Positions 1,624 to 51,442 of a DNA stretch of 64,000 nt are shown one piece after another. The stretch is from Clostridiales bacterium. GTDB lineage: Bacteria; Bacillota; Clostridia; Christensenellales; Borkfalkiaceae. Made by a program: the position numbers and the translations under genes. The DNA is taken from the NCBI GenBank assembly GCA_003523255.1, contig DPGH01000012.1, forward strand, positions 118,759 through 182,758, written 5' to 3'. The notes below the pieces were generated by a model. That model had not been told where the DNA came from and did no database searches. It saw only the letters and a list, made by a program, of their open reading frames with translations. Position 1 is the first letter of the stretch. Each line of letters starts with the position of its first letter.

Positions 1624-1639
1624 CCGTTAGGACGTAAAA

Positions 1640-5010: not shown

Positions 5011-6488
5011 TATACAATAATTCTATAAAAAAGAATTATATTTTACAAAGCATTCTTACAATAGCAAATGTCCTAATCCCTTTGGTAACGTACCCGTACA
5101 TAACAAGGGTTTTGTTACCAGTCGGCACAGGTAAAGTCGCTTTCGCAAATTCGGTTGTTGCATATTTTATTATGTTTGCGCAATTAGGTATTCCTACTTA
5201 TGCGGTAAAGGAGTGCGCTGCGGTCAGGGAAGATGAACAGGCGTTATCAACTAAAGTTAAAGAGTTGATGATTATTTGTGTCTGCACTTCACTTTTTTCT
5301 TGTCTGTGTTTGTATGTTTGTGTGTTGTTTGTTCAAAAACTATATGCGGAAAAATGGTTGTATCTGATTTTGAGTTGTTCCATTTTTTTACAGGCAATAG
5401 GGATCGAATGGCTGTTTTCGGCAATTGAACAATATTCATATATAACTAAGAGATCGTTATTATTTAAATTGATTTCTATGATAGCGATTTTTATCTTGAT
5501 ACGCAAAGAAACAGATTATGTTCTTTATGCGGGCATATCTGTATTTTCTACGTCTGCTTCTTATATATTAAACTTTTTCTATTCTAAAAAGTTTATAAAT
5601 TTAAAGAAGACCCAAAAGTTGAATTGTAAAAAGCATTTTAAAGGGATATTGATGTTTTTTGCAATGACATGCGCGTCAACAATATATCTGAATCTTGATT
5701 CGGTAATGTTGGGTTTTATTGTCGGGGATACTGAAGTGGGGTTATATAGTACTGCGGTAAAAGTCAGGACTTTACTATTAACATTGATAACTTCACTGGG
5801 AACAGTTGTTTTGCCGCGAGCATCATATTATATTGCGCAAGATAAAATGGAAGAATTTTGGGGGTTGATAAAAAAGTCGGCTGAATTCGTGTTTTTGCTA
5901 TCAATTCCGTTGACGATCTATTTTATTATATTTGCGAGGCCGAGTATTTTATTGCTTGCAGGGAATGATTTTTATGGTTCAATACTGCCTATGCAAATAA
6001 TTATGCCAACGCTATTTTTAGTGGGGGCTTCAAATTTGACCGGTATTCAGATATTGATACCGCTTGGAAAAGGAAAAATCGTTTTAATATCAGAAATTGT
6101 CGGTGCGATAATTGATTTTGTGTTAAATTTATTTTTGATAAAAAAGTATGGGGCAGTCGGTGCGGCTTTTACAACTTTATTAGCGGAATTATTTGTTTTA
6201 TTGGTTCAATTGGTTGCATTAAGGAAAGAATTAAAGAAAATTTTTTACAATATAAAAATAATAAAATATTTAAGTGCGATAGTTTTGGCTATTATAGGTT
6301 CGTATTGGATACAATTTTTTATTACAAATAATTTTGTATTATTAGTTGTAACTGCGTTTTCTTTTTTTATTATTTATTATGTGGTATTGTTGATAATTAA
6401 AGAAACTATGGCGACGCAAATATTTAGGTTGTTTATATCAATTATGAAGAAAATTTTTAAAAGGAAACAAGAAAATGAAAAAGGTTAA
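5007..6488 (+). CDS. wzx: Polysaccharide repeat-unit flippase (Wzx, MOP/PST family)
   Basis: 493 aa, about 12-14 TM segments. N-terminal region is typical of polysaccharide biosynthesis protein (PST) flippases. 4-nt overlap with the upstream GT2. Confidence 0.75.
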   Translation: MIYNNSIKKNYILQSILTIANVLIPLVTYPYITRVLLPVGTGKVAFANSVVAYFIMFAQLGIPTYAVKECAAVREDEQALSTKVKELMIICVCTSLFSCLCLYVCVLFVQKLYAEKWLYLILSCSIFLQAIGIEWLFSAIEQYSYITKRSLLFKLISMIAIFILIRKETDYVLYAGISVFSTSASYILNFFYSKKFINLKKTQKLNCKKHFKGILMFFAMTCASTIYLNLDSVMLGFIVGDTEVGLYSTAVKVRTLLLTLITSLGTVVLPRASYYIAQDKMEEFWGLIKKSAEFVFLLSIPLTIYFIIFARPSILLLAGNDFYGSILPMQIIMPTLFLVGASNLTGIQILIPLGKGKIVLISEIVGAIIDFVLNLFLIKKYGAVGAAFTTLLAELFVLLVQLVALRKELKKIFYNIKIIKYLSAIVLAIIGSYWIQFFITNNFVLLVVTAFSFFIIYYVVLLIIKETMATQIFRLFISIMKKIFKRKQENEKG

Positions 6489-7725
6489 ATATTTAATTTT
6501 AGGCGCAGGAATAAGTGGTTTGACATTCGCGACACTTAAAAGACAAGAAGATTATTTAATTATAGAAAAGAGTAATAAAGCAGGCGGCTTATGTAAATCG
6601 TTTTATGAAAATGGATATGTGTGGGATGTGGCAGGACATTTTTTCCATTTTCATTCTGAAGAAACAAAAAAGTATTATATAGAATTGATGAATGGGGTAG
6701 AACAAAAAAATGTAAAAAAATGTGCAAAAGTATATTATTCCGAAAAAATGATGGATGCACCTTTTCAATTTAATATTCATCAATTAAAAACCAAAGAGTT
6801 TATTGAATGTTTGACTGATTTGTATTTTGCGCATAGTGGTGATAGTGCGGAAAATTTCGAAGACTATGTCAAATGTAAATATGGTAACGGAATAGCCAAT
6901 AAGTTTTTGATACCTTATAACGAAAAATTATATGCTTGTAAAATGAACGAATTGGAAAAAAATTCTATGGGGGCATTTTTACCAAAACTAGATTTTTGTT
7001 CTTTAATGAATTATTATCGCATGGATAATAATTTGAATGGAAAGACTTATAATGATTTTTTTATGTATCCCGTAAACGGATGTATGGAAGTGATCAATTC
7101 CTTGATGAAAAAACTTGATAAAGAAAAAATAAAACTAAGCGAAAAGGTGATAGAAATTGACGTAGACAAAAAAGAAGTCGTAACGGATAGAGAGATTTAT
7201 AATTATGAATACTTGATAAGTTCTGTATCTTTGTCAACTTTTATTGAATGTGAGAAGGGAAAGAAAGAAAATATTTTAAATTGGAATAAGGTTCTGGTAT
7301 TGAATATCGGTTTTGACAGACCGAGTATAGACAAAAATGTTTCGTGGATTTATTTCCCGGGGAGTGAAATATTTTATAGAGTTGGTTTCTATAACAATAT
7401 AGCCGAGACTCAAAAGTTAAGCGTATATGTAGAGATAGGCTACAGTAAGGAAGAAGAAATAGACATTGAATATGCTTTTAAACAAACAATCAATGATCTT
7501 AAAAAAGTAGGGATAATCGGAGATCATAATGTGGATTCATGGCAACCGTATATCATCGATCCTGGGTATGTACATATTACTACTGAATGTACATCGATGA
7601 TCAATAATTATATGTCAAAAATGAAAGAAAAAAACGTGTATATGATTGGTCGATATGCTCGGTGGGAATATTCAGCAATGGATGATTCTTTTGAACAGGC
7701 TTTTAAACTAAACAAAGAGATTTAA
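6475..7725 (+). CDS. FAD-dependent oxidoreductase, UDP-galactopyranose mutase (Glf)-like
   Basis: N-terminal dinucleotide-binding motif LILGAGISGLTFA. C-terminal MIGRYARWEYSAMDDSFEQA resembles the Glf C-terminus (GRLGTYRYLDMD...). At 416 aa it is somewhat longer than canonical Glf. Confidence 0.5.
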   Translation: MKKVKYLILGAGISGLTFATLKRQEDYLIIEKSNKAGGLCKSFYENGYVWDVAGHFFHFHSEETKKYYIELMNGVEQKNVKKCAKVYYSEKMMDAPFQFNIHQLKTKEFIECLTDLYFAHSGDSAENFEDYVKCKYGNGIANKFLIPYNEKLYACKMNELEKNSMGAFLPKLDFCSLMNYYRMDNNLNGKTYNDFFMYPVNGCMEVINSLMKKLDKEKIKLSEKVIEIDVDKKEVVTDREIYNYEYLISSVSLSTFIECEKGKKENILNWNKVLVLNIGFDRPSIDKNVSWIYFPGSEIFYRVGFYNNIAETQKLSVYVEIGYSKEEEIDIEYAFKQTINDLKKVGIIGDHNVDSWQPYIIDPGYVHITTECTSMINNYMSKMKEKNVYMIGRYARWEYSAMDDSFEQAFKLNKEI

Positions 7726-7728
7726 ATT

Positions 7729-8820
7729 ATGAAAACTATAATGCTTGTATTCGGGACTAGACCCGAAGCGATAAAAATGTGTCCGCTCGTAAACGAGTTA
7801 AAGACGAGAAGAGGAATTAAAACGGTTGTATGCGTAAGCGGACAGCATAGACAAATGCTCGATCAGGTACTTGATGTATTCAATGTCGTTCCCGATTATG
7901 ATTTGTCTATAATGAAAGAAAAACAAACTTTGTTTGACATTACTACCAGTATATTGGACAAAATAAAAACCGTGCTCGAAGACGTAAAACCGGATGTGGT
8001 TCTTGTACACGGAGATACTTCTACGACGTTTGTAACGGCGCTTGCCTGTTTTTATTTGCAAATTCCTGTGGGACATGTCGAGGCGGGGCTCCGGACATAT
8101 AATATTTATTCGCCGTATCCGGAAGAGTTTAATCGGCAAGCGGTGAGCATTATATCAAAATATAATTTTGCTCCTACCGAACTTTCCAAAGAAAATTTAA
8201 TCCGAGAGGGTAAAGATCCTTCTTCGATTTATGTTACTGGAAATACTGCAATCGATGCTTTGAAAACGACGGTTAAACCCTGCTATACGCATTCTGATTT
8301 GGAATGGGCAAAGGATAGTAAACTTATAATTATAACAGCACATCGTAGAGAGAATCTCGGAGAGCCGATGCATCATATGTTTAGAGCCATAAGACGCATA
8401 ATGGATGAGCATAAAGATGTAAAAGCAATTTATCCGATTCATATGAACCCGATTGTAAGAAGTGAAGCGGAAGAGGAATTGAGCGGTTGTGATAGAATAC
8501 GAATAATAGAACCGCTCGAAGTTGTTGACTTTCATAATTTTCTTGCAAAAAGTTATATGATACTTACGGATAGCGGCGGTATTCAAGAAGAAGCGCCATC
8601 TCTTGGTAAACCGGTTCTTGTTATGAGAGATACGACTGAACGCCCGGAGGGAATTGCCGCCGGAACTTTAAAGTTAGTGGGAACAGACGAAGAAACGATT
8701 TATAAAAACTTTAAGTTGTTACTTGAGGATAAAACCGAGTACGATAAAATGGCACAGGCGAGTAATCCGTATGGCGACGGTTTTGCATGTAAAAGAATTG
8801 CGGATATTATAGGAGAGTAA
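7729..8820 (+). CDS. wecB: UDP-N-acetylglucosamine 2-epimerase (non-hydrolysing)
   Basis: MLVFGTRPEAIKMCPLV, HVEAGLRTYN and a DSGGIQEEAPSLGKPVLVMRDTTERPE block characteristic of WecB/MnaA. It is the last gene of the AT-rich segment. Confidence 0.9.
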   Translation: MKTIMLVFGTRPEAIKMCPLVNELKTRRGIKTVVCVSGQHRQMLDQVLDVFNVVPDYDLSIMKEKQTLFDITTSILDKIKTVLEDVKPDVVLVHGDTSTTFVTALACFYLQIPVGHVEAGLRTYNIYSPYPEEFNRQAVSIISKYNFAPTELSKENLIREGKDPSSIYVTGNTAIDALKTTVKPCYTHSDLEWAKDSKLIIITAHRRENLGEPMHHMFRAIRRIMDEHKDVKAIYPIHMNPIVRSEAEEELSGCDRIRIIEPLEVVDFHNFLAKSYMILTDSGGIQEEAPSLGKPVLVMRDTTERPEGIAAGTLKLVGTDEETIYKNFKLLLEDKTEYDKMAQASNPYGDGFACKRIADIIGE

Positions 8821-8823
8821 TTT

Positions 8824-9870
8824 ATGAATATTTTTAACAACAAAACTTTGATGATTACAGGGGGAACGGGGAGTTTCGGTAACGCCGTTCTCAATCGGTT
8901 TTTAAAAACCGATATCGGAGAAATTCGCATTTTTTCTCGCGACGAGAAAAAACAAGACGATATGCGCCACGAGTTTCAGGAAAGAATGCCCGAAGTTGCG
9001 GATAAAATAAAATTTTATATAGGCGACGTGCGCGACATTAACTCCGTCAGGGGTGCGATGCACGGTGTTGATTATATTTTTCATGCCGCCGCGCTTAAAC
9101 AGGTGCCGAGTTGTGAATTTTTCCCGATGGAAGCGGTCCGTACCAACGTTATCGGCACGGACAACGTTTTAACGGCGGCAATTGAGGAAGGCGTAAAGTC
9201 GGTTATATGTCTTTCCACGGACAAGGCGGCGTATCCTATTAACGCGATGGGGATGAGCAAAGCGGTAGAAGAAAAAATCGCCGTGGCGAAATCTCGCAAT
9301 AGCGGCAATACCAAAATATGCTGCACGCGTTACGGTAACGTAATGTGTTCGCGCGGGTCTGTTATTCCGCTGTGGATAGACCAGATAAAACACGGACAGC
9401 CCGTAACGCTTACAGAGCCCACGATGACGCGTTTTATAATGTCTTTGGATGAAGCGGTTGATTTAGTTCTTTTTGCGTTTGAACACGGCAAAAACGGCGA
9501 TTTGCTTATACAAAAAGCCCCCGCATGCACTATCCGTACGCAAGCGGAAGCGGTATGCGAACTTTTCGGCGGCAATAAAGAAGAGATAAAGGTGATAGGC
9601 ATACGCCACGGCGAAAAAATGTATGAAACGCTTTTAACCAAAGAAGAATGTGCAAAAGCTGTGGATATGGGTAATTTTTATCGAGTGCCGGCGGACAACC
9701 GCGACTTAAACTATGATAAGTATTTTAAGGACGGAAACGACAAGGCCGTTACCATAACCGAGTTCAATTCAAACAATACCAAAAGGCTTAACGTAGAAGA
9801 AACGAAAGCAAAAATCGCTTCGCTTGCCTACATACAGGACGAACTGAAAAAGTTACGTTCCGAAAAATAG
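8824..9870 (+). CDS. fnlA: UDP-N-acetylglucosamine 4,6-dehydratase/5-epimerase (FnlA/CapE/WbjB)
   Basis: N-terminus LMITGGTGSFGNAVLNRFL is almost identical in pattern to S. aureus Cap5E. Length 348 aa. This is the first gene of the higher-GC segment. Confidence 0.9.
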   Translation: MNIFNNKTLMITGGTGSFGNAVLNRFLKTDIGEIRIFSRDEKKQDDMRHEFQERMPEVADKIKFYIGDVRDINSVRGAMHGVDYIFHAAALKQVPSCEFFPMEAVRTNVIGTDNVLTAAIEEGVKSVICLSTDKAAYPINAMGMSKAVEEKIAVAKSRNSGNTKICCTRYGNVMCSRGSVIPLWIDQIKHGQPVTLTEPTMTRFIMSLDEAVDLVLFAFEHGKNGDLLIQKAPACTIRTQAEAVCELFGGNKEEIKVIGIRHGEKMYETLLTKEECAKAVDMGNFYRVPADNRDLNYDKYFKDGNDKAVTITEFNSNNTKRLNVEETKAKIASLAYIQDELKKLRSEK

Positions 9871-9874
9871 AGTT

Positions 9875-11071
9875 ATGAATATACTTGTAACCGGCGCGAA
9901 GGGTTTTGTCGGTAAAAACCTGTGTTACGCGTTAAAAAACGTAAAAGACGGCAAGGATAAGACCCGCCATAATCTTATCGTAAGCGAAATATACGAGTAC
10001 GATATCGACTCAAACGCGGCAGATTTGGCGTTATATTGTCAAAAAGCCGATTTCGTGTTTAACCTTGCGGGCGTAAATCGCCCGAAAGACCCTGAGGAGT
10101 TCAAAAAAGGCAATTTCGGTTTTGCGTCTACCCTTTTAAACGAGCTTGAAAAAGCAGGGAACAAGTGCCCCGTTATGCTCGCTTCGTCCATTCAGGCAAC
10201 GCTTATCGGCAGGTACGACGGCGAATACGGCAGAAGCAAAAAGGCGGGGGAACAATTGTTTTTCGACTATGCGGAAAGAACGGGCGCAAAAGTACTTGTA
10301 TACAGGTTTCCTAACCTGTTCGGCAAGTGGTGCCGCCCGAATTACAACAGCGCGGTCGCGACTTTTTGTTATAACGTCGCTAACGACTTACCTATAACCG
10401 TAAACGATCGTTCGACCGAACTCGAACTGCTTTACATAGACGATTTGGTTTGCGAAATGTTTGACGCGCTCGAAAATAAAGCGCATCGCGCCGAGTTTGA
10501 CGGATTAAAAACGGTAATAACCGAAAAAGGCAAATATTGCGCCGTACCCGTTACGCATAGGGTAACTCTCGGTGAAATAGCGGATTTATTGACGGAGTTT
10601 TCAAGACAACCGCAAACGCTTGTAATGCCGGAAATACCCGAAGGGTCTTTTGCGAAAAAATTGTATTCTACTTATTTGTCGTATTTGCCAAAAGAAAAAG
10701 TAACGTTTTCGCTAAAAACGAACTCGGACGCGCGCGGGAGTTTTACCGAACTGTTAAAAACCGAAAAATGCGGACAAATTTCCGTAAACGTTTCCGACCC
10801 GAAGATAACAAAAGGCAAGCACTGGCACAACAGTAAGTGGGAGTTGTTTATAGTCGTTTCCGGGCACGGACTGATACGCGAGCGCAAGATAGGCACGGAC
10901 GAGGTTATGGAGTTCGAGGTTTCGGGAGATAAAATAGAAGCCGTGCATATGCTCCCGGGGTATACGCACGAAATAATAAATTTAAGCGATACGGAAAAGT
11001 TGGTAACGGTAATGTGGGCGAACGAACAATTCGACGCCGCCCACCCCGATACTTATTTTGAGGAGATATAA
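9875..11071 (+). CDS. fnlB: UDP-2-acetamido-2,6-dideoxy-L-talose/L-QuiNAc reductase-epimerase with C-terminal cupin (FnlB/CapF/WbjC)
   Basis: N-terminus MNILVTGAKGFVGKNL (cf. Cap5F MNIVITGAKGFVGKNL), an SDR domain plus a C-terminal cupin-like region. 398 aa. Confidence 0.9.
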   Translation: MNILVTGAKGFVGKNLCYALKNVKDGKDKTRHNLIVSEIYEYDIDSNAADLALYCQKADFVFNLAGVNRPKDPEEFKKGNFGFASTLLNELEKAGNKCPVMLASSIQATLIGRYDGEYGRSKKAGEQLFFDYAERTGAKVLVYRFPNLFGKWCRPNYNSAVATFCYNVANDLPITVNDRSTELELLYIDDLVCEMFDALENKAHRAEFDGLKTVITEKGKYCAVPVTHRVTLGEIADLLTEFSRQPQTLVMPEIPEGSFAKKLYSTYLSYLPKEKVTFSLKTNSDARGSFTELLKTEKCGQISVNVSDPKITKGKHWHNSKWELFIVVSGHGLIRERKIGTDEVMEFEVSGDKIEAVHMLPGYTHEIINLSDTEKLVTVMWANEQFDAAHPDTYFEEI

Positions 11072-11073
11072 AA

Positions 11074-12252
11074 ATGAAAACAGATTATTCCGATATAAAG
11101 TTTAAAGGCGACGGGAGATTGAAACTACTTATAATCGTCGGCACCCGTCCCGAAATTATAAGGCTCGCCGCGGTTATAACCAAGTGCAGAAAGTATTTCG
11201 ACTGCGTACTGGCGCATACGGGGCAAAATTACGATTACAACTTAAACGGCGTGTTTTTTAAAGACCTTAAACTTGCCGACCCCGAAGTATATATGAACGC
11301 CGTGGGCGACGATTTGGGCGCGACGGTAGGCAACATAATAAACTGCTCGTATAAACTCATAAACGATATTAAGCCGGACGCGCTTTTAATTCTCGGCGAC
11401 ACTAATTCTTGCTTATCCGCCATTGCAGCGAAGCGTTTACACGTTCCGATATTCCATATGGAAGCGGGTAACAGGTGTAAAGACGAGTGTTTGCCGGAGG
11501 AAACCAACCGCCGTATAGTTGATATAATTTCCGACGTAAACATGGCTTATTCCGAACATGCGAGGCGGTACCTTGCGGAGTGCAGTTTACCGAAAGAAAG
11601 AACTTTCGTTACGGGTTCACCCATGGCGGAGGTGTTACGCGCGAATCTTACCGATATAGAAAAATCGGACGTACTGAAAAGGTTGAATTTACAACCGAAA
11701 AAATACATTTTGTTGTCTGCGCACCGCGAGGAGAATATCGATACCGAAAAGAACTTTACCGCGCTTTTTACGGCGATAAACGGTCTTGCGCAGAAATACG
11801 ATATGCCGATACTATATTCGTGCCATCCGCGCTCCAAAAAAAGACTTGACGAAAGCGGGTTTAAACTCGACGAGCGCGTTATAAGACACGAGCCGCTCGG
11901 TTTTCACGATTACAACAATTTGCAAATGAACGCTTTCGCGGTCGTTTCGGACAGCGGTACCTTGCCCGAAGAAAGCAGTTTTTACACGAGCATAGGCAAA
12001 CCGTTTCCCGCGGTGTGTATAAGGACTAGTACGGAACGTCCCGAGGCTTTGGATAAGGCATGCTTCGTTTTAGCGGGTATAGACGGCAACGGACTTATCC
12101 AGGCTGTTGATACCGCCGTAAGCATGAATGAAAACGGCGACGACGGCATACCCGTTCCCGATTACGTTGAAGAAAACGTGTCGACCAAAGTCGTTAAAAT
12201 AATACAGTCTTATACTTCTACCGTCAATAAAATGGTGTGGCGTAAGTTTTAA
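11074..12252 (+). CDS. fnlC: UDP-N-acetyl-L-talosamine/UDP-L-FucNAc 2-epimerase (FnlC/CapG/WbjD)
   Basis: LLIIVGTRPEIIRLAAVI, ILGDTNSCLSA and HMEAGNR motifs of the WecB-like 2-epimerase family. Positioned third in a conserved fnlABC arrangement. Confidence 0.9.
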   Translation: MKTDYSDIKFKGDGRLKLLIIVGTRPEIIRLAAVITKCRKYFDCVLAHTGQNYDYNLNGVFFKDLKLADPEVYMNAVGDDLGATVGNIINCSYKLINDIKPDALLILGDTNSCLSAIAAKRLHVPIFHMEAGNRCKDECLPEETNRRIVDIISDVNMAYSEHARRYLAECSLPKERTFVTGSPMAEVLRANLTDIEKSDVLKRLNLQPKKYILLSAHREENIDTEKNFTALFTAINGLAQKYDMPILYSCHPRSKKRLDESGFKLDERVIRHEPLGFHDYNNLQMNAFAVVSDSGTLPEESSFYTSIGKPFPAVCIRTSTERPEALDKACFVLAGIDGNGLIQAVDTAVSMNENGDDGIPVPDYVEENVSTKVVKIIQSYTSTVNKMVWRKF

Positions 12253-12281
12253 CGATTTTTGCATATTTGCTTTTATAAAAA

Positions 12282-13370
12282 ATGAACAAAACACTAAACT
12301 ATTTTTGCGAAAACTATACTTCTAACACGCTTGCGGGAACTTCCGTGCAGTCGTACTTTACGCCGCAGGGAAAGTTAGCGGCATACGCGTTTTATAAGCC
12401 GTTCTTGGCGGGCGAATTCGATTATTCGTTTTTGTTTACTAATACGGTAGACAGCACTTATTCGGACGGGAGCCTGACAAAGTGCAACGACCCTTGCGGA
12501 GAATGGAAGATATTCGATTGCAAGGTTATAATATGTAACGACGTAAACGCCGCGCTTAACGGTAGTTACGATAAGAGCAAGGAATTCGTTTTGACCTTTC
12601 GCGGTAGCCCTGAAAAAAAGGTTTTACCGAACGAAACTTTTTATACGGATTCCGCAAAACTTAACGTTACCGAAAACGAGTACATATGTATTAAAACGGT
12701 TTTCGAGGGGAAAAATATTCCTTGCCATATAGAAAATAAAATACTTACCTATATCGACGACGGTAACGGCGTTAAAGCGGATAAATACGTTCCGCTCCCT
12801 TCTATGATAGGCGTAAAAAGACACGTTAAAAAGAAAATCGCTTTTTGGGGCGACAGCATAACGCAGGGTATAGGTTGTAAAGAAGATTCTTACGCGCATT
12901 ATACCGCTGTCTGCGCCGAAATACTCGGCAACGAGTATTCGTTCTGGAACCTCGGTATAGGTTTCGGCAGGGCGGCGGACGCGGCGACAAACGGCGCGTG
13001 GGCGGATAAAGTTAAAACTTGCGATACGGTTATTGTTTGTTTCGGCGTGAACGACCTTTATAAAATAGGCGATTACGAAAAAATAAAAACGAGTTACGAT
13101 AGAATAATCGGGATACTGAAAGGGAAAAGGGTTATTTTTCAAACCATACCGCCGTTCGATTATCCCGATAACCTTTGCGAGATTTATTTAAAACTTAACG
13201 ACTATATTCGCAAAGAACTTTCAAAAAAAGTTTACGCCGTGTTTGACGAAACGCCTTATTTATCGGATAGCGAAAATCCTTTTGCCGCAAAGTACGGCGG
13301 GCATCCTGACGAAATCGGTTGCAAACTTTGGGGAGAGCGTTTAGCGGACTTTTTAAGGGACAAAATTTAA
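12282..13370 (+). CDS. SGNH/GDSL hydrolase-family protein with a ~180-aa N-terminal domain of unknown function (candidate polysaccharide/sugar O-acetyl esterase or transferase)
   Basis: Block I IAFWGDSITQGIG (GDS(L)), a GxND-like VCFGVNDL and block V GGHPDEIG (DxxH) in the C-terminal half. No signal peptide or TM. N-terminal half is Cys-rich (CNDPCGEWKIFDC) and I do not recognise it. Confidence 0.7.
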   Translation: MNKTLNYFCENYTSNTLAGTSVQSYFTPQGKLAAYAFYKPFLAGEFDYSFLFTNTVDSTYSDGSLTKCNDPCGEWKIFDCKVIICNDVNAALNGSYDKSKEFVLTFRGSPEKKVLPNETFYTDSAKLNVTENEYICIKTVFEGKNIPCHIENKILTYIDDGNGVKADKYVPLPSMIGVKRHVKKKIAFWGDSITQGIGCKEDSYAHYTAVCAEILGNEYSFWNLGIGFGRAADAATNGAWADKVKTCDTVIVCFGVNDLYKIGDYEKIKTSYDRIIGILKGKRVIFQTIPPFDYPDNLCEIYLKLNDYIRKELSKKVYAVFDETPYLSDSENPFAAKYGGHPDEIGCKLWGERLADFLRDKI

Positions 13371-13385
13371 TAAACGACGATTAAA

Positions 13386-13428
13386 AAGCGAACTTTGTTT
13401 TTACGACAGAGTTCGTTTTTTTTTTGCT
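13386..13428 (+). terminator. Rho-independent terminator closing the polysaccharide operon
   Basis: Stem CGAACTTTG/CAGAGTTCG (one mismatch), a 9-nt loop, followed by T9 (13416-13424). Confidence 0.7.
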
Positions 13429-13640: not shown

Positions 13641-13775
13641 AAAGTAAATTTTACTCTTAGTTCGGGGTTGAAACGGTAAAAAAGTTATTGTATAATTAGA
13701 TAAACAAAGAATAAACGAAAATTATAAAAAAAACGAGCCATAATACGTATAAACGGTAAAAATAAAATTAAAAAA

Positions 13776-13815
13776 TATCAGATATATGTATTTTGTGCCA
13801 TTTTGTATCAGATAT
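13776..13815. promoter_or_regulatory. Direct repeat TATCAGATAT x2 (13776-13785 and 13806-13815) with internal ATTTTGT x2
   Basis: Exact 10-nt direct repeat spaced 30 nt, about 150 nt upstream of the small ORF and operon start. Plausible response-regulator-type tandem site or promoter-proximal element. Confidence 0.3.
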
Positions 13816-13959
13816 TATATTGCGGGAGTAAAATGCTATTATTAGATAGCGAAATATAGTTTAACCGCCGCGAGAGGGCGCTTTAAAGGCTTGAGATAAA
13901 AAAACAATACGGCAACGCCGTTTTATATATAAATATATTTTATAAGGAGTGTGTTTTTG

Positions 13960-14082
13960 ATGAAAAAACTATACGAACAACCGACAATCAAAATGACAGT
14001 TTTGCCTACGTGCGACGTGTTAAGCATATCGCCGACTTTCGACGATAAGAACTATTTGAAAGAAGAATGGTTCGATTTATAA
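13960..14082 (+). CDS. Unannotated small ORF (40 aa): MKKLYEQPTIKMTVLPTCDVLSISPTFDDKNYLKEEWFDL
   Basis: AAGGAG 10 nt upstream of the ATG. Ends 10 nt before the RBS of the 1006-aa secreted protein gene. Below the 60-aa cutoff of the ORF track. No homology assignable from memory. Confidence 0.4.
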   Translation: MKKLYEQPTIKMTVLPTCDVLSISPTFDDKNYLKEEWFDL

Positions 14083-14092
14083 GGGGGAAATT

Positions 14093-17000
14093 ATGAAAAC
14101 GAAAAGAATCACATTATTGCTTGCTATAATAGCGTTTTGCGCTTTTAGCCTTGCGCTGTCCTTTTCCGTCGTAAACAAAACCCGTGCGGAAGAGGTTACC
14201 GCCGCCGAGGGTATCGTGATGACGGAAGGCGCTTCCGTCCGGTACGACGCGGAAGAACCCGGCATAAGATTTACGACCGAAATGACTAAATCTTATTATG
14301 ACGAACTCGTTGCCGCCGCTACCGACGGCAAGGTCGATTTTTATACGATAATCACCGTAAACGGCAATACCGAAAAGTCCGCCCGCATAAACCACGAGCG
14401 CACGCTTCGGTTTGAAAACGGCGTTGCGACTTTTCAAGCCGCGCAACTTATAAAGCTTGTAAACCGCGAACTTACCGCCGAAGAGCGTAAAAAAGCCGCG
14501 GCGTTTGAGTTTACTGCGGACTTTTACGCGGAATACATAAATGCGAAAGGTGAAACCGTTACCGTTAAAGCGGACAAAAGCGGCGTTACGCGTTCTATGA
14601 GAGGCGTAGCAAGCTACGCGCTTTTAAACGGCAACGTAACGGACGAAAATAAAATAAACATGCTTAAAGGCTACCTCGGCACCGTTACCGAAAATACCGA
14701 AGTAAGGTATGCAGACCTTTCGGATAAATCCAAAGTAGACCTCGGTTTAGAGAGCGGTGCGGTATATTTAACCGCACAAAAAGCGGGCGATATAACGGAC
14801 GGCGTTGTAGACCTCTCCGCAGAAAATATTAAAACGGGTGTCGAAACGACCGTTTCCGTTTTCGACGCGGACAACAACGTTACCCGTTACAAATATATCT
14901 TTGCAGATAAAATAATCACCAAGGCAGAAGATTTGGCGGTTTTTGCGATAGCAGATCATAAAACGTACAAAAACGAAGGTTATTATATACTCGGTAATGA
15001 TATCGACGCGACGGGTTATACTCACAAACACGGTGCTTGGCTCGGTTGGGGAGAGAATCAACCCGGTTTTGAGGGCACCTTTGACGGCAGGGGGTATACG
15101 ATAAATAATCTTTCTATCGGTGCTTTCGGCTTATTCGGTTATATAAGACCGCATACCGTGCTTAAAAACTTTGCGCTGGTAAATATGAAACCCGTTCTTT
15201 CCCGCAGCGACGGCGTTGACGCCTTCGGCGGGCTTGCGTACATAGCGTATTCCACGCCGACGGCTTATCCCACGCTTGAAAACATTTATTTATCGTCGAG
15301 TTTTTTCCTTGACGACTACGTAATAACTTCGGGCAAGACTCAAGGTAAAACCCAAACGATAATAAGCTCTATGGTGTTTAGCGCGACTTGGGGTTACGAG
15401 CAAATTAAAAACTGTATATTCGAGTATACGGGAGACGTTGCAACCGGCGGGCGCGGCATATATTCCGGACTTCTCCAAGGCGGAAAGGACAAAATTACCG
15501 TTTTAGATTCGTTCGTAATAGGTAAAAACCCGGTCGTTCAAACCAAAAGCAACGATGTATACGACAGTGCGAACAATATAACCGAGGGTAGCGGTGCTAC
15601 CGTTTATCCGCTTACCCGTTACAGCGACTATGCCGGATTAACGGCGAACGTAACCGATTTCAGTTCGTTTGATACCGCTTACTGGGATATATCTAACGGC
15701 GCGCCTGTATTTAAGGGAGCGCAAAAGTATCTGAGTAAGCCCTACGTAACTATCGGCGGCAATACGGCGGCGAATTACGAACTCGGTATAAACGACGTAA
15801 AAACTCTCGGCGTAACTGCGTTTATCGGCGAGTTGAACGACGTAACTTATACCGTTACTTCGGGTAGCGAATACGTTACCGTAAGCGACGGAAATATAAC
15901 GGGCGTTGCGGTGGGCGATGCCGTAATTACCGCGCAATATACCCTCGGCGGCGAAGTTATGACCTCGTCGATAAACGTAACGGTCGTTCCCACCATAATA
16001 GAGGTAACGACTCCGTTAGAATTCAGTATGGCAGACGGAACGTTAACCGCGGCGGATAAAATCGCGATATTCGGAAACTCGGATATAGAGATACTTTCGG
16101 TAAACTGTTTTGACGCTTCGGTTGCGCTCTCTATTGCAGACGGCGTAATAACGGGCTTCCCCGAGTATACAGCAAAAAGCACGCCTAAAACGTATGCGGT
16201 TTCTTTCACGACCGCAGAGGCAATATATAAAGTAAACGTTACGCCGTATACGAAGATAATAAGGACTGCTGCGGATTTATCGGTGTTTAATTTCCCCGGT
16301 CATGACGGATACAAAAACGAAGGGTACTACGTACTCGGCAACAATATAGACGCGTCCGGGTATCTTCATAAACATACCACGGCGGCGGGTAATCCGACGT
16401 ATATAGACTGGAACACCAAAGGTACAACCGGGTTTGAGGGAACGATTGACGGCAGGGGTTACACGATAAGCAATATCACAATCGGTACAGGCGGATTGTT
16501 AGGGTATATAAGACCGAAGACGGTGCTTAAAAACTTTGCGATAACCGGCATAACGTTCCAAAGGACGCACGGAAACGGCGACCCGCTTACGGCGGCACTT
16601 GCTAAAATAATGTATTCTACGAAAGACAGTTATCCTATACTTGAAAATCTGTATATACAGGCAAACGCATTTATCGGCGGGGCGGATACGAACAGCAACC
16701 TTGTGGTAAACTGCACAACGGGTTATGAGAAAATCGTAAACTGCATATTCGAGTATTCGGGTGTAAAAGATACCACCGCAGGGCACGGAACGTATGCATC
16801 GCAAATAGCGGACAGAAACGTTACCGGGTTTAAGATTGAAAATTCTTACGTTATTTCGTTAAACCCCGTAGCGTGCGGCGGCAAAACCAACCCCGTATAC
16901 GACAGCGCGAACAAAATCGAGGCGACGACAGCGGAGTATACGGCGTTGTATCCGGATGGCTCAACGTTTCCTAAAAAGGATTTCTATACGGTTGAACTTA

Positions 17001-17113
17001 CTCGCTACGACGACTATACGGAACTTACCGCAAACGTAACCGACTTCAGTTCGTTCAGCGCTGATTACTGGGATATTTCAGCAGCGGGTTACCCCGTATG
17101 GAAAACAAAGTAA
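14093..17113 (+). CDS. Large secreted multi-domain protein (1006 aa) with two copies of a GLUG-like (GGLxGY) module and a bacterial Ig-like (Big_2-like) domain; paralog of 25925..29299
   Basis: Signal peptide MKTKRITLLLAIIAFCAFSLALSFS. Internally repeated ~150-aa module (KNEGYYILGNDIDATGY...FEGTFDGRGYTINNLSIGAFGLFGYI and KNEGYYVLGNNIDASGY...FEGTIDGRGYTISNITIGTGGLLGYI). Ig-like segment TYTVTSGSEYVTVSDGNITGVAVGDAVITAQYTLGG. AGGGGGA RBS. Confidence 0.7.
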   Translation: MKTKRITLLLAIIAFCAFSLALSFSVVNKTRAEEVTAAEGIVMTEGASVRYDAEEPGIRFTTEMTKSYYDELVAAATDGKVDFYTIITVNGNTEKSARINHERTLRFENGVATFQAAQLIKLVNRELTAEERKKAAAFEFTADFYAEYINAKGETVTVKADKSGVTRSMRGVASYALLNGNVTDENKINMLKGYLGTVTENTEVRYADLSDKSKVDLGLESGAVYLTAQKAGDITDGVVDLSAENIKTGVETTVSVFDADNNVTRYKYIFADKIITKAEDLAVFAIADHKTYKNEGYYILGNDIDATGYTHKHGAWLGWGENQPGFEGTFDGRGYTINNLSIGAFGLFGYIRPHTVLKNFALVNMKPVLSRSDGVDAFGGLAYIAYSTPTAYPTLENIYLSSSFFLDDYVITSGKTQGKTQTIISSMVFSATWGYEQIKNCIFEYTGDVATGGRGIYSGLLQGGKDKITVLDSFVIGKNPVVQTKSNDVYDSANNITEGSGATVYPLTRYSDYAGLTANVTDFSSFDTAYWDISNGAPVFKGAQKYLSKPYVTIGGNTAANYELGINDVKTLGVTAFIGELNDVTYTVTSGSEYVTVSDGNITGVAVGDAVITAQYTLGGEVMTSSINVTVVPTIIEVTTPLEFSMADGTLTAADKIAIFGNSDIEILSVNCFDASVALSIADGVITGFPEYTAKSTPKTYAVSFTTAEAIYKVNVTPYTKIIRTAADLSVFNFPGHDGYKNEGYYVLGNNIDASGYLHKHTTAAGNPTYIDWNTKGTTGFEGTIDGRGYTISNITIGTGGLLGYIRPKTVLKNFAITGITFQRTHGNGDPLTAALAKIMYSTKDSYPILENLYIQANAFIGGADTNSNLVVNCTTGYEKIVNCIFEYSGVKDTTAGHGTYASQIADRNVTGFKIENSYVISLNPVACGGKTNPVYDSANKIEATTAEYTALYPDGSTFPKKDFYTVELTRYDDYTELTANVTDFSSFSADYWDISAAGYPVWKTK

Positions 17114-17198: not shown

Positions 17199-18938
17199 AT
17201 GAAAAAATTTTTTGCACTACTTTTATGTTTATTTACAGCGTTCTCCGTTACGGCATGCGGCTCGGCTGAAGAAGAGGATAACTCTACGACTACCGTTATC
17301 ACCGTACACAATTACAACGGCGGCGTAGGCAACAAATGGCTTGAAGACGCAGCCGCACGCTTTACCGCGCTTAAAACCGCCGACAGCTACGAAGAGGGTA
17401 AAACCGGCGTAAAAATCAATATCGTCGGCAACCAGCAGTCGGAACTCAGCACCATGGCGACTTCCGGTTACAACATGTTCTTTTTCGAGCAGCATTACGA
17501 TATAAGAAATCTTTCTCAAGGCGAAAAACTTCTTGATGTATCCGACGTGCTTACCGAAAAAAGCAACGACGAGCGCGACGGGGTAAAAGTTTCTATCGAA
17601 GATAAAATTCCCGAAGAGTACAGAAGCACTCTTAAAGGCGCGGACGGCAAATATTACGGCTTGCCGCATTACGCCTGGTATCCCGGTCTTACTTACGACA
17701 GAGAATTATTCGACAAATATAATTTCTATTTTGCCGCACCCGATGAAGCGAATAAACAAAAAATCGAAACGCAATTCGGCGGCGAGCATTACTTTATTGC
17801 CGACAAAAACGGCAAAAAGAGTTGCGGTTCCGACGGCAAATACGGCACTGCGGACGACGGACTTCCCTCGTCGGTAGAAGAATTTTTGGTTCTTTGCGCG
17901 TATATGAAAACCACGTACGGCGTTCAACCCGTTACTATGGCGGGTATGTATAAGTATTATTCTAACTATCTGGTTGAGGGGCTTTGGGCTTCGCTTTCCG
18001 GCGGGGAACAAATGAAAGTAAACTACACCTTTACCGGCGACGTAGACGTTGTAACCGGTTATACAAACGAAAACCTTTTTGAGGGTATAGACTACGTTAA
18101 AAAACCGATAGTGGAAACAAAGTCCGTTACCGAGGCGACCGGCTATCTCGCGTACGATTCCGTTTATCGTTACTATGCGGCTTCGCTCGTTAAAATACTC
18201 GAAAAAGAAAAGTTCTTCTCAAGCGACGCGACTATGGGCTCCGTTTCTCACACCACCGCGCAGGGCGACTTTATATTCAGCGGCAAGGCGCAAATGCCCA
18301 AAACCGCAATGCTTATAGAAGGTACCTACTGGTATAACGAAACCGAAGAAAAGGCTAACAACTTAACCGACTACTATTCCGACCCGAGAAATACCGAAAG
18401 GGACGTAAGGTGGATGAATTTACCGACCATTATAAGCGGCTCTGCCAAGCCCGTAGCGGACGACGCCCCCGCGAGAAAGAACACCGCGGTAGAAACTGGC
18501 GGTGCGTACCTTGTGGTAAATGCGAATATAGAAGGCAAAACCGGACTTATAAACGCTATTAAAGACTTTATCAAGTTCCTATACACCGACAGCGAACTCG
18601 AAGCGTTTACCGTTTCTACCGGTATACCCAAGGCTATGCTCGATTACGAAGTAAGCGACGCTAAAATCGCGGACCTTCCCGAGTTCAAAAAATCGGTTAT
18701 TAACTTTGCAAAAACGAGCGATGTAGTTTACGGCGCGGCGGATAACGAAACTTTCCTTAAAAACGGCAACGACGTGTTTAAGGTAAGGGTAAACGCACCC
18801 GTATTCGTACCCAAATACAAAAACGTATCTTACATGAGTTATTTCCAGGCGTATGAAAACGGCGCAACCGCGCAAGACGTATTCGAAGCCACGAGAATAA
18901 GCGCAGAGGGCTGGAAGGCGTATTATGTCGGCAATTAA
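17199..18938 (+). CDS. Extracellular solute-binding lipoprotein of a carbohydrate ABC transporter (LplA-like, family-1 SBP, unusually long at 579 aa)
   Basis: Lipoprotein signal with lipobox FSVTAC|G, followed by a Ser/Glu-rich linker. Size and context with two LplB/LplC-like permeases immediately downstream. Confidence 0.7.
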   Translation: MKKFFALLLCLFTAFSVTACGSAEEEDNSTTTVITVHNYNGGVGNKWLEDAAARFTALKTADSYEEGKTGVKINIVGNQQSELSTMATSGYNMFFFEQHYDIRNLSQGEKLLDVSDVLTEKSNDERDGVKVSIEDKIPEEYRSTLKGADGKYYGLPHYAWYPGLTYDRELFDKYNFYFAAPDEANKQKIETQFGGEHYFIADKNGKKSCGSDGKYGTADDGLPSSVEEFLVLCAYMKTTYGVQPVTMAGMYKYYSNYLVEGLWASLSGGEQMKVNYTFTGDVDVVTGYTNENLFEGIDYVKKPIVETKSVTEATGYLAYDSVYRYYAASLVKILEKEKFFSSDATMGSVSHTTAQGDFIFSGKAQMPKTAMLIEGTYWYNETEEKANNLTDYYSDPRNTERDVRWMNLPTIISGSAKPVADDAPARKNTAVETGGAYLVVNANIEGKTGLINAIKDFIKFLYTDSELEAFTVSTGIPKAMLDYEVSDAKIADLPEFKKSVINFAKTSDVVYGAADNETFLKNGNDVFKVRVNAPVFVPKYKNVSYMSYFQAYENGATAQDVFEATRISAEGWKAYYVGN

Positions 18939-19866
18939 AAACGAGGCAAAAACTATTTTTAACAGCAAAAGGCAACTGCACAGATTTTTATTCTGGTTAA
19001 GCATAGTCGTTTTGCCGCTTATACAGTTTTGCGTGTTTTACGTTTACGTAAACTTTAACATGATTGTAATGTCCTTTCAGCACTTCGAGGCTAAAACGGA
19101 CGCGTTAGGTTACGTAGTAAATTTTGCGGGATTAGAAAACTTTAAAGCGGCTTGGCAGTTCCTCGGCGCAAATCTTTACATGATTAAAAATTCGCTGATA
19201 TACTTCGTGTTCTGCACGTTGCTGACTATGGCGTTCTCGCTATGCTTTTCGTTCTATATCTATAAACAGTTTTTCGCTTCTAAGTTCTTTAAGGTGATGC
19301 TGTTTATGCCGCAAATCGTTTCAAGCGTGGTATTCGCGTTGCTGTTTAAGTATATCGTTACCGACGTTTACATAGGTATCGTCGGCGGCGAAAACGTTAT
19401 AGGGCTTTTGGATAACCCCGCAACGCGTTTCGGTACGGTGCTGTTTTACAACGTATGGATGGGCTTCGGCGTAAACATATTGCTGTTCAGCGGCGCGATG
19501 AGCGGTATAAACGAATCTATAGTAGAATCCGCCGAGATAGACGGCGCTACGCATTTAAGAGAATTCGTAAGTATAACCATACCTATGATATTCCCGACGA
19601 TTAAGTCGCTTTTGGTTCTCGGCATAGTCGGCGTGTTTACCAACCAGATGAATTTATTTACCCTTTTCGACAATCAGGCGGGGGACGTGTCTACGTTAGG
19701 TTACAGCATTTACCTGCAATCGGTACGAGCGGACATAATAAACAAAGACCCCAACAATCTCGACTTTTCGCAGTTGTCGGCTCTCGGTATAATCTTAACG
19801 CTTATACTTGTACCGATAACCACGGGCATTAAAAAACTGCTCGATAAGTACGGGGCAAGCGTGTAG
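18925..19866 (+). CDS. Carbohydrate ABC transporter permease (LplB-like, MalF/UgpA class)
   Basis: 6 TM segments. EAA-loop-like region ESAEIDGATHLREFVSITIPMIFP. 14-nt overlap with the SBP gene. Confidence 0.8.
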   Translation: MSAIKNEAKTIFNSKRQLHRFLFWLSIVVLPLIQFCVFYVYVNFNMIVMSFQHFEAKTDALGYVVNFAGLENFKAAWQFLGANLYMIKNSLIYFVFCTLLTMAFSLCFSFYIYKQFFASKFFKVMLFMPQIVSSVVFALLFKYIVTDVYIGIVGGENVIGLLDNPATRFGTVLFYNVWMGFGVNILLFSGAMSGINESIVESAEIDGATHLREFVSITIPMIFPTIKSLLVLGIVGVFTNQMNLFTLFDNQAGDVSTLGYSIYLQSVRADIINKDPNNLDFSQLSALGIILTLILVPITTGIKKLLDKYGASV

Positions 19867-19878
19867 GAGGAGCAAAAA

Positions 19879-20826
19879 ATGGATGATAAAAAAACTGCGT
19901 CCCGCGGGCGCGCTTTAAGTAACTTTTTTATAATTTTGCTCGGAACGATTATTTTGCTTTACGCGATATCGGTTATTCTTCCGCTTGTGTGGGGGCTTAT
20001 AACTTCGCTTAAATCGAATATGGACTTTCAGTACCAAAACAATAAACTTTGGTTTCCGAATGCAGAGTTCAGCGCGGCTGAAATAAAACTCGCCAACTAC
20101 TCGCTTATACTTAATAACTTTAACTTTTCCGAAACGGTAATGTTTTATTCGGGCAGCACTCTCGTAACGCATAAAGCGCAGGCAACGCTACCTTTACTTA
20201 TACTGAACACGTTTTTATACGCGGGGGTGGGTTGCCTTATACTCGCGATGGTACCCGCGGTTTGCGCATACGCCTGCACGAAATACAAGTTTAAGTTTAA
20301 CAAAGTAATTTTTATGCTTAACCTTGTCGTGATGACGTTGCCTATCGTAGGTTCTTACGCGACATCGCTTACGCTTTTGAGAAACTTGGGGTTATACGAT
20401 AACTTCTACGGTAACTATATACAAAAGTTTTCTTTTACCGGTATGTATTTCCTCGTGTTCGGCGCCTTTTACGAAACCTTTCCCGACGCGTATTTAGAGG
20501 CGGCGGAGATAGACGGCGCTTCGCATTACCGCGTGCTTTTCAATATAGTCATTCCGCTTTCGGCAAAAATGCTGGGCACGGTTGCGCTTATTCAGTTCGT
20601 TTCGCTCTGGAACGACTATCAAACGCCGCTTATGTATTTGCCCACGCATCCTACGCTTGCTTACGGCGTGTACTATATGGCTTTTAAAAACACTAACGGC
20701 GTGCTTTCCAAAACGCCGATAAAAATCGCGAGTTGTATGATACTCGCAGTGCCGATTTTAATTTTGTTCATCGTGTTTAAAGACAAACTCATGGGCAACA
20801 TTTCTGTCGGCGGAATTAAAGAATAA
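19879..20826 (+). CDS. Carbohydrate ABC transporter permease (LplC-like, MalG/UgpE class)
   Basis: EAA loop EAAEIDGASHYRVLFNIVIPL. 6 TM segments. Confidence 0.8.
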   Translation: MDDKKTASRGRALSNFFIILLGTIILLYAISVILPLVWGLITSLKSNMDFQYQNNKLWFPNAEFSAAEIKLANYSLILNNFNFSETVMFYSGSTLVTHKAQATLPLLILNTFLYAGVGCLILAMVPAVCAYACTKYKFKFNKVIFMLNLVVMTLPIVGSYATSLTLLRNLGLYDNFYGNYIQKFSFTGMYFLVFGAFYETFPDAYLEAAEIDGASHYRVLFNIVIPLSAKMLGTVALIQFVSLWNDYQTPLMYLPTHPTLAYGVYYMAFKNTNGVLSKTPIKIASCMILAVPILILFIVFKDKLMGNISVGGIKE

Positions 20827-20841
20827 ACCAAAAGGAGATGA

Positions 20842-25885: not shown

Positions 25886-25891
25886 AAAAAC

Positions 25892-25912
25892 GGGGTCGTA
25901 AAGGGCGACCCC
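25892..25912 (+). other. Short GC hairpin (GGGGTCG...CGACCCC) immediately before the RBS of the 25925 gene, no U-run
   Basis: Read directly. Possible intra-operon attenuator or stabiliser. Confidence 0.35.
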
Positions 25913-25924
25913 TAAGGAGGAAGT

Positions 25925-51428: not shown

Positions 51429-51442
51429 AGGCTTTCGGTAAA

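Follow-up and report, generated by a model that had tools for sequence, protein, structure and literature searches.

A conserved 40-codon gene beside a large secreted-protein gene in a Clostridiales bacterium, and its possible place among YxxP-leader peptide precursors

Within a 64,000-nucleotide stretch of DNA from a Clostridiales bacterium of the Borkfalkiaceae (assembly GCA_003523255.1, contig DPGH01000012.1, positions 118,759 to 182,758; hereafter the window), an unannotated open reading frame (ORF) of 40 codons immediately precedes the gene for a 1006-residue secreted protein. This ORF is almost certainly a genuine small protein-coding gene, and its product very probably belongs, judging from its sequence, to a superfamily of short peptides that share an N-terminal leader containing a YxxP motif. 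The reading that we favour, with a probability of roughly one half, is that the peptide would be an orphan precursor of a peptide made on the ribosome and modified after translation (RiPP), akin to the precursors of the linear polyphosphorylated peptides (LPPs), one that undergoes maturation in trans and whose function is linked to the secreted protein beside it.

The small gene occupies positions 13960 to 14082 of the forward strand, with ATG at 13960 and TAA at 14080–14082, and encodes MKKLYEQPTIKMTVLPTCDVLSISPTFDDKNYLKEEWFDL. Our re-reading agreed exactly with the coordinates and translation given by a sequence-only reading of this DNA, which had also noted AAGGAG upstream of the ATG; this Shine-Dalgarno (SD) sequence is present at 13945–13950 with a spacer of 9 nt, is invariant in two related loci (L001 and L003) and is shifted yet present in a third (L005). 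That reading had further placed the end of the ORF 10 nt before the ribosome-binding site (RBS) of the next gene, but 10 nt is the distance from the stop codon to the ATG of the 1006-residue protein gene at 14093, and the RBS itself, GGGGGA at 14083–14088, directly adjoins the stop codon. The start that is conserved in relatives is ATG 13960 and not GTG 13951, at which a mechanical ORF list begins the frame (43 residues). In the NCBI record of this metagenome-assembled genome (MAG), the gene has indeed been left without a tag, as had been supposed, between the consecutive locus tags of its neighbours, DEV87_05870 (the upstream GDSL gene) and DEV87_05875 (the 1006-residue protein, followed by DEV87_05880), and the exact 40-residue product is present in the ENA and Logan gene calls. 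The GenBank proteins HCH74689–HCH74691 belong to this NCBI record. When the 722-nt intergenic region (31% GC) was shuffled 5000 times, an ATG-initiated ORF of at least 40 codons appeared in 53% of the shuffles, and in 1.3% such an ORF was preceded by a properly spaced SD-like core. The length of the ORF alone is thus unremarkable, and conservation therefore decides.

The pairing of a short leader-bearing ORF with a homologue of the 1006-residue protein recurs in six independent arrangements (the window together with L001 and L003; L005; L006/L213; L009/L214; L133; and L204). In each, an ORF of 40–48 residues that starts M-[KR]-K-x-Y-x-x-P-x-hydrophobic lies immediately 5′ of the large gene, separated from it by 10–24 nt or overlapping it in an ATGA. 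The large protein is about 28–32% identical in the distant species (28–30% in L006/L213 and L009/L214) and the DNA is no longer alignable. The distant ORFs, of 42–48 residues, encode MRKVYSKPQLSLTSFSLGDTLLNS...EEWLT... (L006/L213, ATGA overlap), MKQYKTPQFEIHFITEDIITSS...PGWLS (L009/L214), MRKDYAAPSAAVCKLEYKDVLCTS...IKWIT... (L133, ATGA overlap) and MKKCYEKPDVLFVLFEEQDAVRTS...PGWWD (L204), and the overlaps in L006 and L133 suggest translational coupling. Whether homologous operons always carry such a peptide had been proposed as a check on the ORF; an ORF with the same motif precedes the large-protein homologue in all four distant loci. Because shuffled DNA yields the motif only about 18 times in 758 kb when both strands are counted, its presence in a 150-nt slot at 4 of 4 loci is not attributable to chance. 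A metagenome scan with the large-protein alignment returned mostly remote proteins that share no more than a GLUG-like module, and of its yield L133 and L204 alone were informative.

The gene order around the pair speaks to the same association. In L213 and L214 the operon contains the genes found in the window, namely those for a solute-binding protein, two permeases, an Ig protein, a DUF4838 protein, an A-type paralogue of the large protein, the peptide and the large protein itself (the B-type). These eight genes are circularly permuted, so that the pair of peptide and B-type protein opens the operon in the window and closes it, following the A-type gene, in L213 and L214, and the A-type paralogue of the window (25925–29299) has no such peptide. 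We conclude from these arrangements that the small gene is linked specifically to the B-type protein, and a functional tie between the two products is probable. Closer to the window, products 95%, 79% and 68% identical to the peptide are encoded in other assemblies at the same place before the same large gene. In L005 the pair has a different neighbourhood, with a serine recombinase gene on its upstream side and a CNNM gene on its downstream side; the 100 nt that precede the peptide gene are present there too, and this stretch and the two genes therefore move as a unit. Among these close relatives, the positions that vary avoid those of the family consensus (1/11 consensus positions changed, vs 18/29 of the others; Fisher p=0.004), and the probability that the ORF would have stayed intact under random substitution is 0.27 for 12 changes and 0.07 for 26 changes, or about 0.02 jointly. 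With so short a query, word-indexed protein searching recovered near relatives only, and an exhaustive hidden Markov model (HMM) search added one further peptide, P0035. No paralogous peptide was found within the window.

The peptide has two parts. Residues 1–24 (13960–14031) resemble a leader and follow the superfamily consensus M-K-K-x-Y5-x-x-P8-x-I10 ... L15 ... V20-L21-x-x-S24 (n=78, ungapped), while residues 25–40 (14032–14079) form a variable, acidic, core-like tail with a Trp near its end (EEWFDL). The N-terminus, MKKLYEQPTIKM, agrees with the family start M-K-K-x-Y-x-[K/Q/T]-P-x-hydrophobic-x-hydrophobic, and L15, V20, L21 and S24 of the second half of the leader are all present. Scored with a position-specific scoring matrix (PSSM) over positions 1–26, the peptide obtains 22 bits vs a maximum of 1.0 among 594 background ORFs of the window. 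At 40 residues, and encoded 10 nt before the 1006-residue protein gene, it also has the length (35–90 residues) and the same-strand large secreted neighbour that characterize the family. M1, Y5, P8 and S24 are invariant in the peptide alignment (A3), and every B-paired peptide keeps Y5, P8 and S24 as well as a hydrophobic residue at position 10, the remainder changing fast, a pattern that points to a leader for a common binding partner followed by a diversifying core. Near the C-terminus, [E/P]-W-[F/L/I] recurs among the B-paired peptides (EDWFSL, EEWLT.., IKWIT.., PGWLS, PGWWD) and, among the matches listed from the genome scan described below, in many superfamily members as well. A separate 101-residue protein, P0036, which consists of tandem repeats of CDVLAISNTLDHGM, resembles the segment CDVLSISPTFDD of the window peptide (E=3.8e-4).

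A degenerate DNA pattern for MKKxYxKPx[h]x[h] was scanned over 185,579 species genomes, and the family counts that follow are lower bounds. At least 123 matches were obtained, of which at least 117 start ORFs of no more than 90 residues and at least 91 start ORFs of 30–90 residues. The matches listed include true lasso-peptide precursors of paeninodin and cyanobacterial types (NCBIfam 1.7e-16 and 3.8e-8) and Cys-rich peptides of 70–88 residues; NCBIfam places a Paenibacillus-type match in the paeninodin family of lasso peptides, so that it is not the sactipeptide precursor CteA. The remaining class comprises at least 78 plain peptides of 36–70 residues, mostly from Prevotella/Bacteroidales and Clostridia, in which positions that the pattern did not impose are nonetheless shared: hydrophobic residues at 15 and 20–21, Ser at 24 (37 of the 78 listed) and at 25, and an acidic tail in which a Trp usually stands close to the C-terminus. 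For the plain class, neither Pfam nor NCBIfam gave a matching model. When 45 family leaders were scanned against NCBIfam, RiPP precursor families alone appeared, all of them weakly. At least one MAG carries two members (L074, L105), and a literature search for sequence strings of the family found nothing.

The genes next to the plain peptides suggest that the association with surface proteins is general. Same-strand neighbours in the loci listed are large (median 552 residues) and are enriched for signal peptides as scored by a crude heuristic (41/77 vs 61/234, odds ratio 3.2, p=2e-5), and the surface domains that they carry include BspA-type LRR_5, Listeria-Bacteroides repeats (Flg_new), SLH, Peptidase_M60, Mfa-like fimbrillin, Big_2 and fn3. 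In Prevotella the peptide gene usually follows the large gene by 3–46 nt, and in Clostridia it often precedes the gene for a secreted protein. Taken together, the sequences and their contexts indicate that the superfamily is very large, that it is represented in both Clostridia and Bacteroidota, and that most of its non-cysteine members are orphans beside genes for large secreted or surface proteins. In one pair of loci, L039/L101, two proteins are encoded in L101 upstream of the genes for a 1096-residue secreted protein and a peptide (L101:1913-3917), namely a LytTR response regulator and a membrane protein that is by eye a putative Agr-type kinase; this context hints that some family members may be sensed as signals.

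In a few family loci the peptides are accompanied by candidate maturation genes. L064, from Herbivorax, encodes in this order a Flg_new protein, the peptide, an SLH protein, a ScmC/HprK-like protein, a PqqD protein (Pfam 1e-18; lasso-PqqD 5e-11), a peptidase resembling archaeal-type signal peptidase I (SPase-I) and an ABC exporter. L080, from a Prevotellaceae member, contains two peptides that follow secreted proteins of 528 and 485 residues, respectively, and then HprK-related, SPase-like, PqqD and MsbA-like ABC proteins, and in L122 an SPase-like protein (BLASTP 6e-25 to that of L064) comes first, followed by secreted proteins of 239 and 676 residues with a peptide ending VEDWFE between them. 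Loci of the Cys-rich class (L014, L017, L038, L040, L098, L100, L115, L125 and L132) have a leader of the form MKKxYxKP, and many of their peptides end in CYH.P....LFNS or similar; an HprK-like protein is present in all of them, a radical SAM enzyme in most (undetected in L125), PqqD in some, and an SPase-like protein in L017. The Cys-rich class appears to be an uncharacterised type of RiPP cluster in Oscillospiraceae and Clostridia.

The modules of L064, L080 and L122 match the machinery of the LPPs, which were described in Bacilli as products of precursors (LppA) of 35–200 residues whose leaders follow the consensus YxxPxVLxHQxIxFETxxS (Popov et al., Nat Commun 2026; PMC13381572). The LPP leader is bound through YxxP by a discrete RiPP recognition element (RRE), whose binding motif is defined as [Y/W]xxPx[L/V/I/F/A]; Ser3 of the core is polyphosphorylated by an HprK-like kinase; cleavage is by a SipW-like peptidase; and the clusters sit in capsular polysaccharide loci (PMC13381572). 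That paper is silent on Clostridia, Bacteroidota and surface proteins (PMC13381572). The present family resembles the LPP precursors in its short length, its N-terminal YxxPx[V/L/I] leader, a conserved Ser some 19 residues past the Tyr and a highly variable C-terminus, and the window peptide fits the RRE-binding motif at Y5-E-Q-P8-T-I10. L064, L080 and L017 share with the LPP clusters the discrete PqqD RRE, the SipW/archaeal-type SPase I, the HprK-like kinase and the MsbA-like exporter, and the window peptide borders the 3′ end of a Wzy-type polysaccharide locus, much as LPP clusters lie in capsular ones. LPPs have been described in Bacilli only, whereas the present family, most of it from Clostridia and Bacteroidota, is paired with genes for large secreted proteins; furthermore, the Ser residues of the window peptide fall at +17 and +19 from the Tyr, where the LPP consensus has +18.

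To our knowledge, the only known reader of the YxxP leader motif is the PqqD-type RRE, and it is on this ground, together with the retention of the leader positions, that an orphan LPP-like precursor is favoured. Under the mechanism that we propose, the peptide would be co-transcribed, and probably translationally coupled, with the 1006-residue secreted protein; a recognition protein whose gene lies at another place in the genome would bind the leader of the peptide; the peptide would be modified, possibly in the region of Ser24, cleaved and exported; and it would then act extracellularly with or on its cognate secreted protein. Maturation as a RiPP in trans is an assumption of this scheme and, taken by itself, falls somewhat short of even odds. 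The idea accommodates two of the roles that had been proposed for the ORF on sequence alone: that of a small-protein partner, which is consistent with the conserved pairing, and that of a small secreted signal, in so far as the leader, the variable tail and the LPP-like genes present in some loci support a processed and exported peptide.

A number of observations weigh against this reading. The machinery occurs in only 3 of about 75 non-cysteine family loci, a lower bound given that fixed 8-kb blocks were examined. In the 64 kb of the window we found no PqqD or RRE, SPase-like peptidase, HprK-like kinase, radical SAM maturase or peptide exporter, and the same maturation genes were not found within 10 kb on either side of the pair in two other species (L213 and L214), so that, in contrast to LPP clusters, the window and its orthologous loci have neither an RRE, a SipW-type peptidase, an HprK-like kinase nor an MsbA-like exporter. 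In particular, phmmer searches with the RREs of L064 and L017 matched nothing in six-frame ORFs of the window, L001-L012, L133 and L204; precomputed Pfam annotation of L213 and L214 contained no PqqD; and neither an HprK-like match nor a match to SPase-like queries was obtained in the window. The only GxSMxP protein in the window (51419–52030) is unmatched by the SPase-like queries and is by eye a putative membrane-anchored housekeeping signal peptidase, while the only radical SAM enzyme is by eye like the housekeeping NrdG, also putatively, and the window contains no ORF of at least 250 residues with CxxxCxxC. The resemblance of the leader to that of LPPs is itself partial, as only the Tyr, the Pro and the first hydrophobic residue agree and VLxHQxIxFET is unmatched. 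Over PSSM positions 13–26 the score is modest, with 10 of the 594 background ORFs equalling the window peptide, and the peptide has no match in Pfam, NCBIfam or the sequences of the PDB (for the last, two peptide profiles were used). Finally, the codon-level signal is weak. The dN/dS ratio of the small ORF is 0.89 between the window and L003 and 0.48 between the window and L005, as compared with 0.11–0.22 for the large gene, and substitutions among close relatives show neither codon periodicity nor an excess at third positions. The synonymous-site pattern by which the sequence-only reading had proposed to judge the ORF is consequently absent among close relatives, although frame, position and motif are kept in the distant loci, beyond the reach of DNA alignment. 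In our judgement the odds of ORF survival, the avoidance of motif positions and the conservation at the distant loci outweigh the weak codon signal. The dS of the small ORF vs L003 is 0.12, and that of the adjacent large gene 0.58; the low value hints at an overlapping constraint at the nucleotide level or at recent recombination of the segment.

The commonness of ORFs of this length in shuffled DNA, the dN/dS near 0.9 vs L003 and the missing third-position excess are what would be expected if the ORF were a chance product of a conserved non-coding leader region and had no product at all, an explanation that we regard as barely credible: the conjunction of ORF and SD is rare in shuffles, joint retention under random change is improbable, substitutions avoid the motif, four distant loci with DNA too diverged to align keep the motif at the same position, and the family to which the peptide belongs has at least 90 members. 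Another explanation makes translation of the ORF the functional event, in that stalling, or coupling that opens the RBS, would control the 1006-residue protein gene and the peptide itself would have no function. Its placement at the 5′ end of the operon, the stop codon that abuts the next RBS (or the ATGA overlap of relatives), a conserved 5′ region with a small hairpin and U-run, and the lack of codon periodicity in close relatives all accord with such a cis-acting leader, as does a general likeness to TnaC, SecM and MifM, which are regulatory leader or arrest peptides: the ORF is short, lies immediately 5′ of a secreted-protein gene and is spaced so as to permit coupling. Arrest peptides are conserved in the C-terminal residues located in the ribosomal exit tunnel, but in the present peptides the conserved residues are N-terminal (Y5, P8, S24); moreover, the peptide lies in mid-operon between two large genes in L213 and L214, its position relative to its neighbour varies, with family members in Prevotella being usually 3′ of theirs, it has no signal or transmembrane segment with which to sense secretion, and neither an Rfam family nor a pair of alternative structures over the ORF was found. 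A TnaC-like 'WF..D' resemblance was discarded, as family members differ in how far it lies from the stop codon. The option of a cis-regulatory leader, raised in the sequence-only reading, is thus disfavoured and in our view very improbable, though translational coupling may be a secondary property of the peptide gene.

Among readings in which the peptide itself is active, an unmodified small protein might work directly with the 1006-residue protein, as a cytoplasmic escort, in the timing of secretion, or as a β-strand donor to an Ig-like or GLUG module, with no RiPP machinery involved. The two genes are conserved together and travel jointly, a maturation gene is nearby in 0/6 arrangements, the N-terminus of the peptide alternates as in a β-strand, and the large protein is modelled as an all-β multidomain protein. 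However, a Sec signal peptide is present on the partner but lacking in the small peptide, which would restrict any meeting of the two to the time before export; the leader motif is kept beside unrelated surface families (LRR_5, Flg_new, SLH, M60), which points to a common third partner; and some family members occur within LPP-like clusters. We consider direct action of an unmodified protein unlikely, if worth bearing in mind. More improbable still is a secreted pheromone that controls the glycan-utilisation and surface-protein operon, a special case of an exported peptide. A precursor-like build, a short aromatic and acidic C-terminus, and the LytTR-type regulator and putative Agr-type kinase (by eye) of L101 fit such a signal, but the Agr-like context is confined to that one pair of loci, no regulator or sensor kinase was found near the pair in the window, L213 or L214, and the only transporter of the operon is an importer of the sugar type.

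Other RiPP systems share the leader to varying degrees. Lasso peptides of the paeninodin family (NF033524) have the same leader motif, read by a discrete PqqD-type RRE (B1), and the DNA pattern caught true lasso precursors in L048, L065, L026 and L087, but the NCBIfam lasso models miss the window peptide, which has no conserved Asp/Glu at core positions 7–9 with a small N-terminal residue. Neither a lasso cyclase resembling Asn synthetase nor a B2 cysteine protease was detected among the ORFs of the window (by Pfam for the operon and the polysaccharide locus, and by eye from the N-termini for the others). A lasso-ring register of S22 with D28/D29 in the tail was considered and rejected, since it is not kept in P0030 (N22), P0038 or P0037. 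RiPPs matured by radical SAM enzymes (the SSH-motif RaS-RiPPs, NF050043, and the Cys-rich class) also share this N-terminal leader and PqqD-type recognition, but the single Cys of the window peptide, Cys18, is Gly in P0002, and a maturase is not nearby. Precursors encoded away from their maturase and served by it at a distance are known, for example the prochlorosins. In orphan-precursor systems, as here, precursor genes are scattered from the genes for the enzymes, and the leader is kept while the core diversifies; the difference is that in the present family every orphan is tied to the gene of one particular secreted protein, and that the trans-acting maturase of this organism is hypothetical. 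Many orphan precursors have been predicted in human microbiomes (PMC11953309).

Upstream of the small gene, a terminator with a 17-bp stem (13383–13421) follows the GDSL gene, which ends at 13370, and the best candidate for a σ70-like promoter on the forward strand is TTGAAA-17-TATAAT (13668..13696), a consensus match only, at 11/12 positions. The 5′ region at 13860–13959 (forward strand) is 83–97% identical in L001, L003 and L005, and L005 conserves it despite its different genomic context. This region includes a hairpin, ACGGC-AAC-GCCGT (13909–13921), followed by a U-run and situated 25 nt before the SD; relatives keep its stem, with one C-to-T change on the forward strand that yields a G-U pair, and vary its loop. 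The fold z-score is -2.5 over 401 nt, and the 5-bp hairpin with its U-run is the sole local structure upstream of the SD. An Rfam scan of the region returned nothing relevant, and no alternative terminator/antiterminator pair overlapping the ORF was found. The hairpin could be an attenuator-like or a stabilising RNA element. Farther upstream, window 13786–13830 contains two copies of the direct repeat TATCAGATAT at a distance of 32 nt; the repeat, also present in L001 and L003, is a candidate site for the binding of a regulator. In relatives the conserved 5′ region is immediately preceded by an additional element (L001:5700-5900, L003:3500-3600, L005:2500-2600), which has no counterpart in the window, where it would fall just before 13860. 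This element holds a poly-G tract whose length differs among them (about 10, 11 and 12–13 G), and in L001 it is an insertion of about 165 nt between direct repeats of TTAACCGCCGCG; a phase-variable promoter tract and a small mobile insertion are candidate explanations.

The partner of the peptide, encoded at 14093–17113 on the forward strand, is a 1006-residue all-β multidomain protein with a signal peptide evident in its sequence and two internal GLUG-like modules. It has nothing above threshold in Pfam, and its AF2 model (pLDDT 70) is all-β, with structural matches only to generic tandem Ig-like or S-layer-like proteins. The A-type (1124 residues, 25925–29299) and the B-type (14093–17113) are 63% identical over 73% of their length, and both contain duplicated GLUG-like modules (TKIIT.AEDL...EGYY.LGNDIDA...GF.GTFDGRG.TI.N...GLFG) and a faint similarity to Peptidase_M26_N with no recognisable catalytic fold. 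In L008:2272-5301 the A-type paralogue is split into ORFs of 193 and 766 residues, by a frameshift, a stop codon or an assembly error. By Pfam-based assignment, the rest of the operon (17199–29299, forward strand) encodes a 579-residue lipoprotein, two ABC importer permeases (BPD_transp_1), a 1008-residue Ig-domain protein, a DUF4838 protein and the A-type protein; the lipoprotein, which has no Pfam match, is a probable solute-binding protein. The context of a sugar-type ABC importer and DUF4838 suggests a role in the use of glycans at the cell surface. Directly upstream of the peptide operon lies a complete Wzy-dependent polysaccharide locus (439–13370) with genes for a UDP-glucose dehydrogenase, Wzy, GT1, GT2, a Wzx-type flippase, two UDP-GlcNAc 2-epimerases, Polysacc_synt_2-type dehydratases and a GDSL hydrolase.

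The leader logic and the enzyme set discussed above are already known; the size of the family, its spread to Bacteroidota and Clostridia, the predominance of orphans and the systematic pairing with surface proteins are undescribed in the literature that we searched. Annotation pipelines that discard ORFs of fewer than 60 residues miss a conserved component of this operon. A bolder and rather doubtful extension is that a single distant module of PqqD, SipW-like peptidase, HprK-like kinase and ABC exporter might mature dozens of orphan leader peptides per genome, each of which would partner its own surface protein outside the cell (as a cofactor, an anchor, an inhibitor or a maturation tag), and that this arrangement might be widespread in gut Clostridia and Bacteroidota; if true, it would represent a new biological role for RiPP-type peptides. 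Should the reading of the window peptide as an orphan LPP-like precursor hold, this 40-codon ORF would be one member of a very large precursor family that occurs in bacteria dominating the gut and rumen (Prevotella, Oscillospiraceae and other Clostridia), and the recognition logic of lasso peptides and LPPs would extend from self-contained clusters to scattered orphans beside surface-protein genes in a context of glycan utilisation. It would also provide a testable handle on the purpose of LPP-like peptides and of the orphan precursors predicted in microbiomes.

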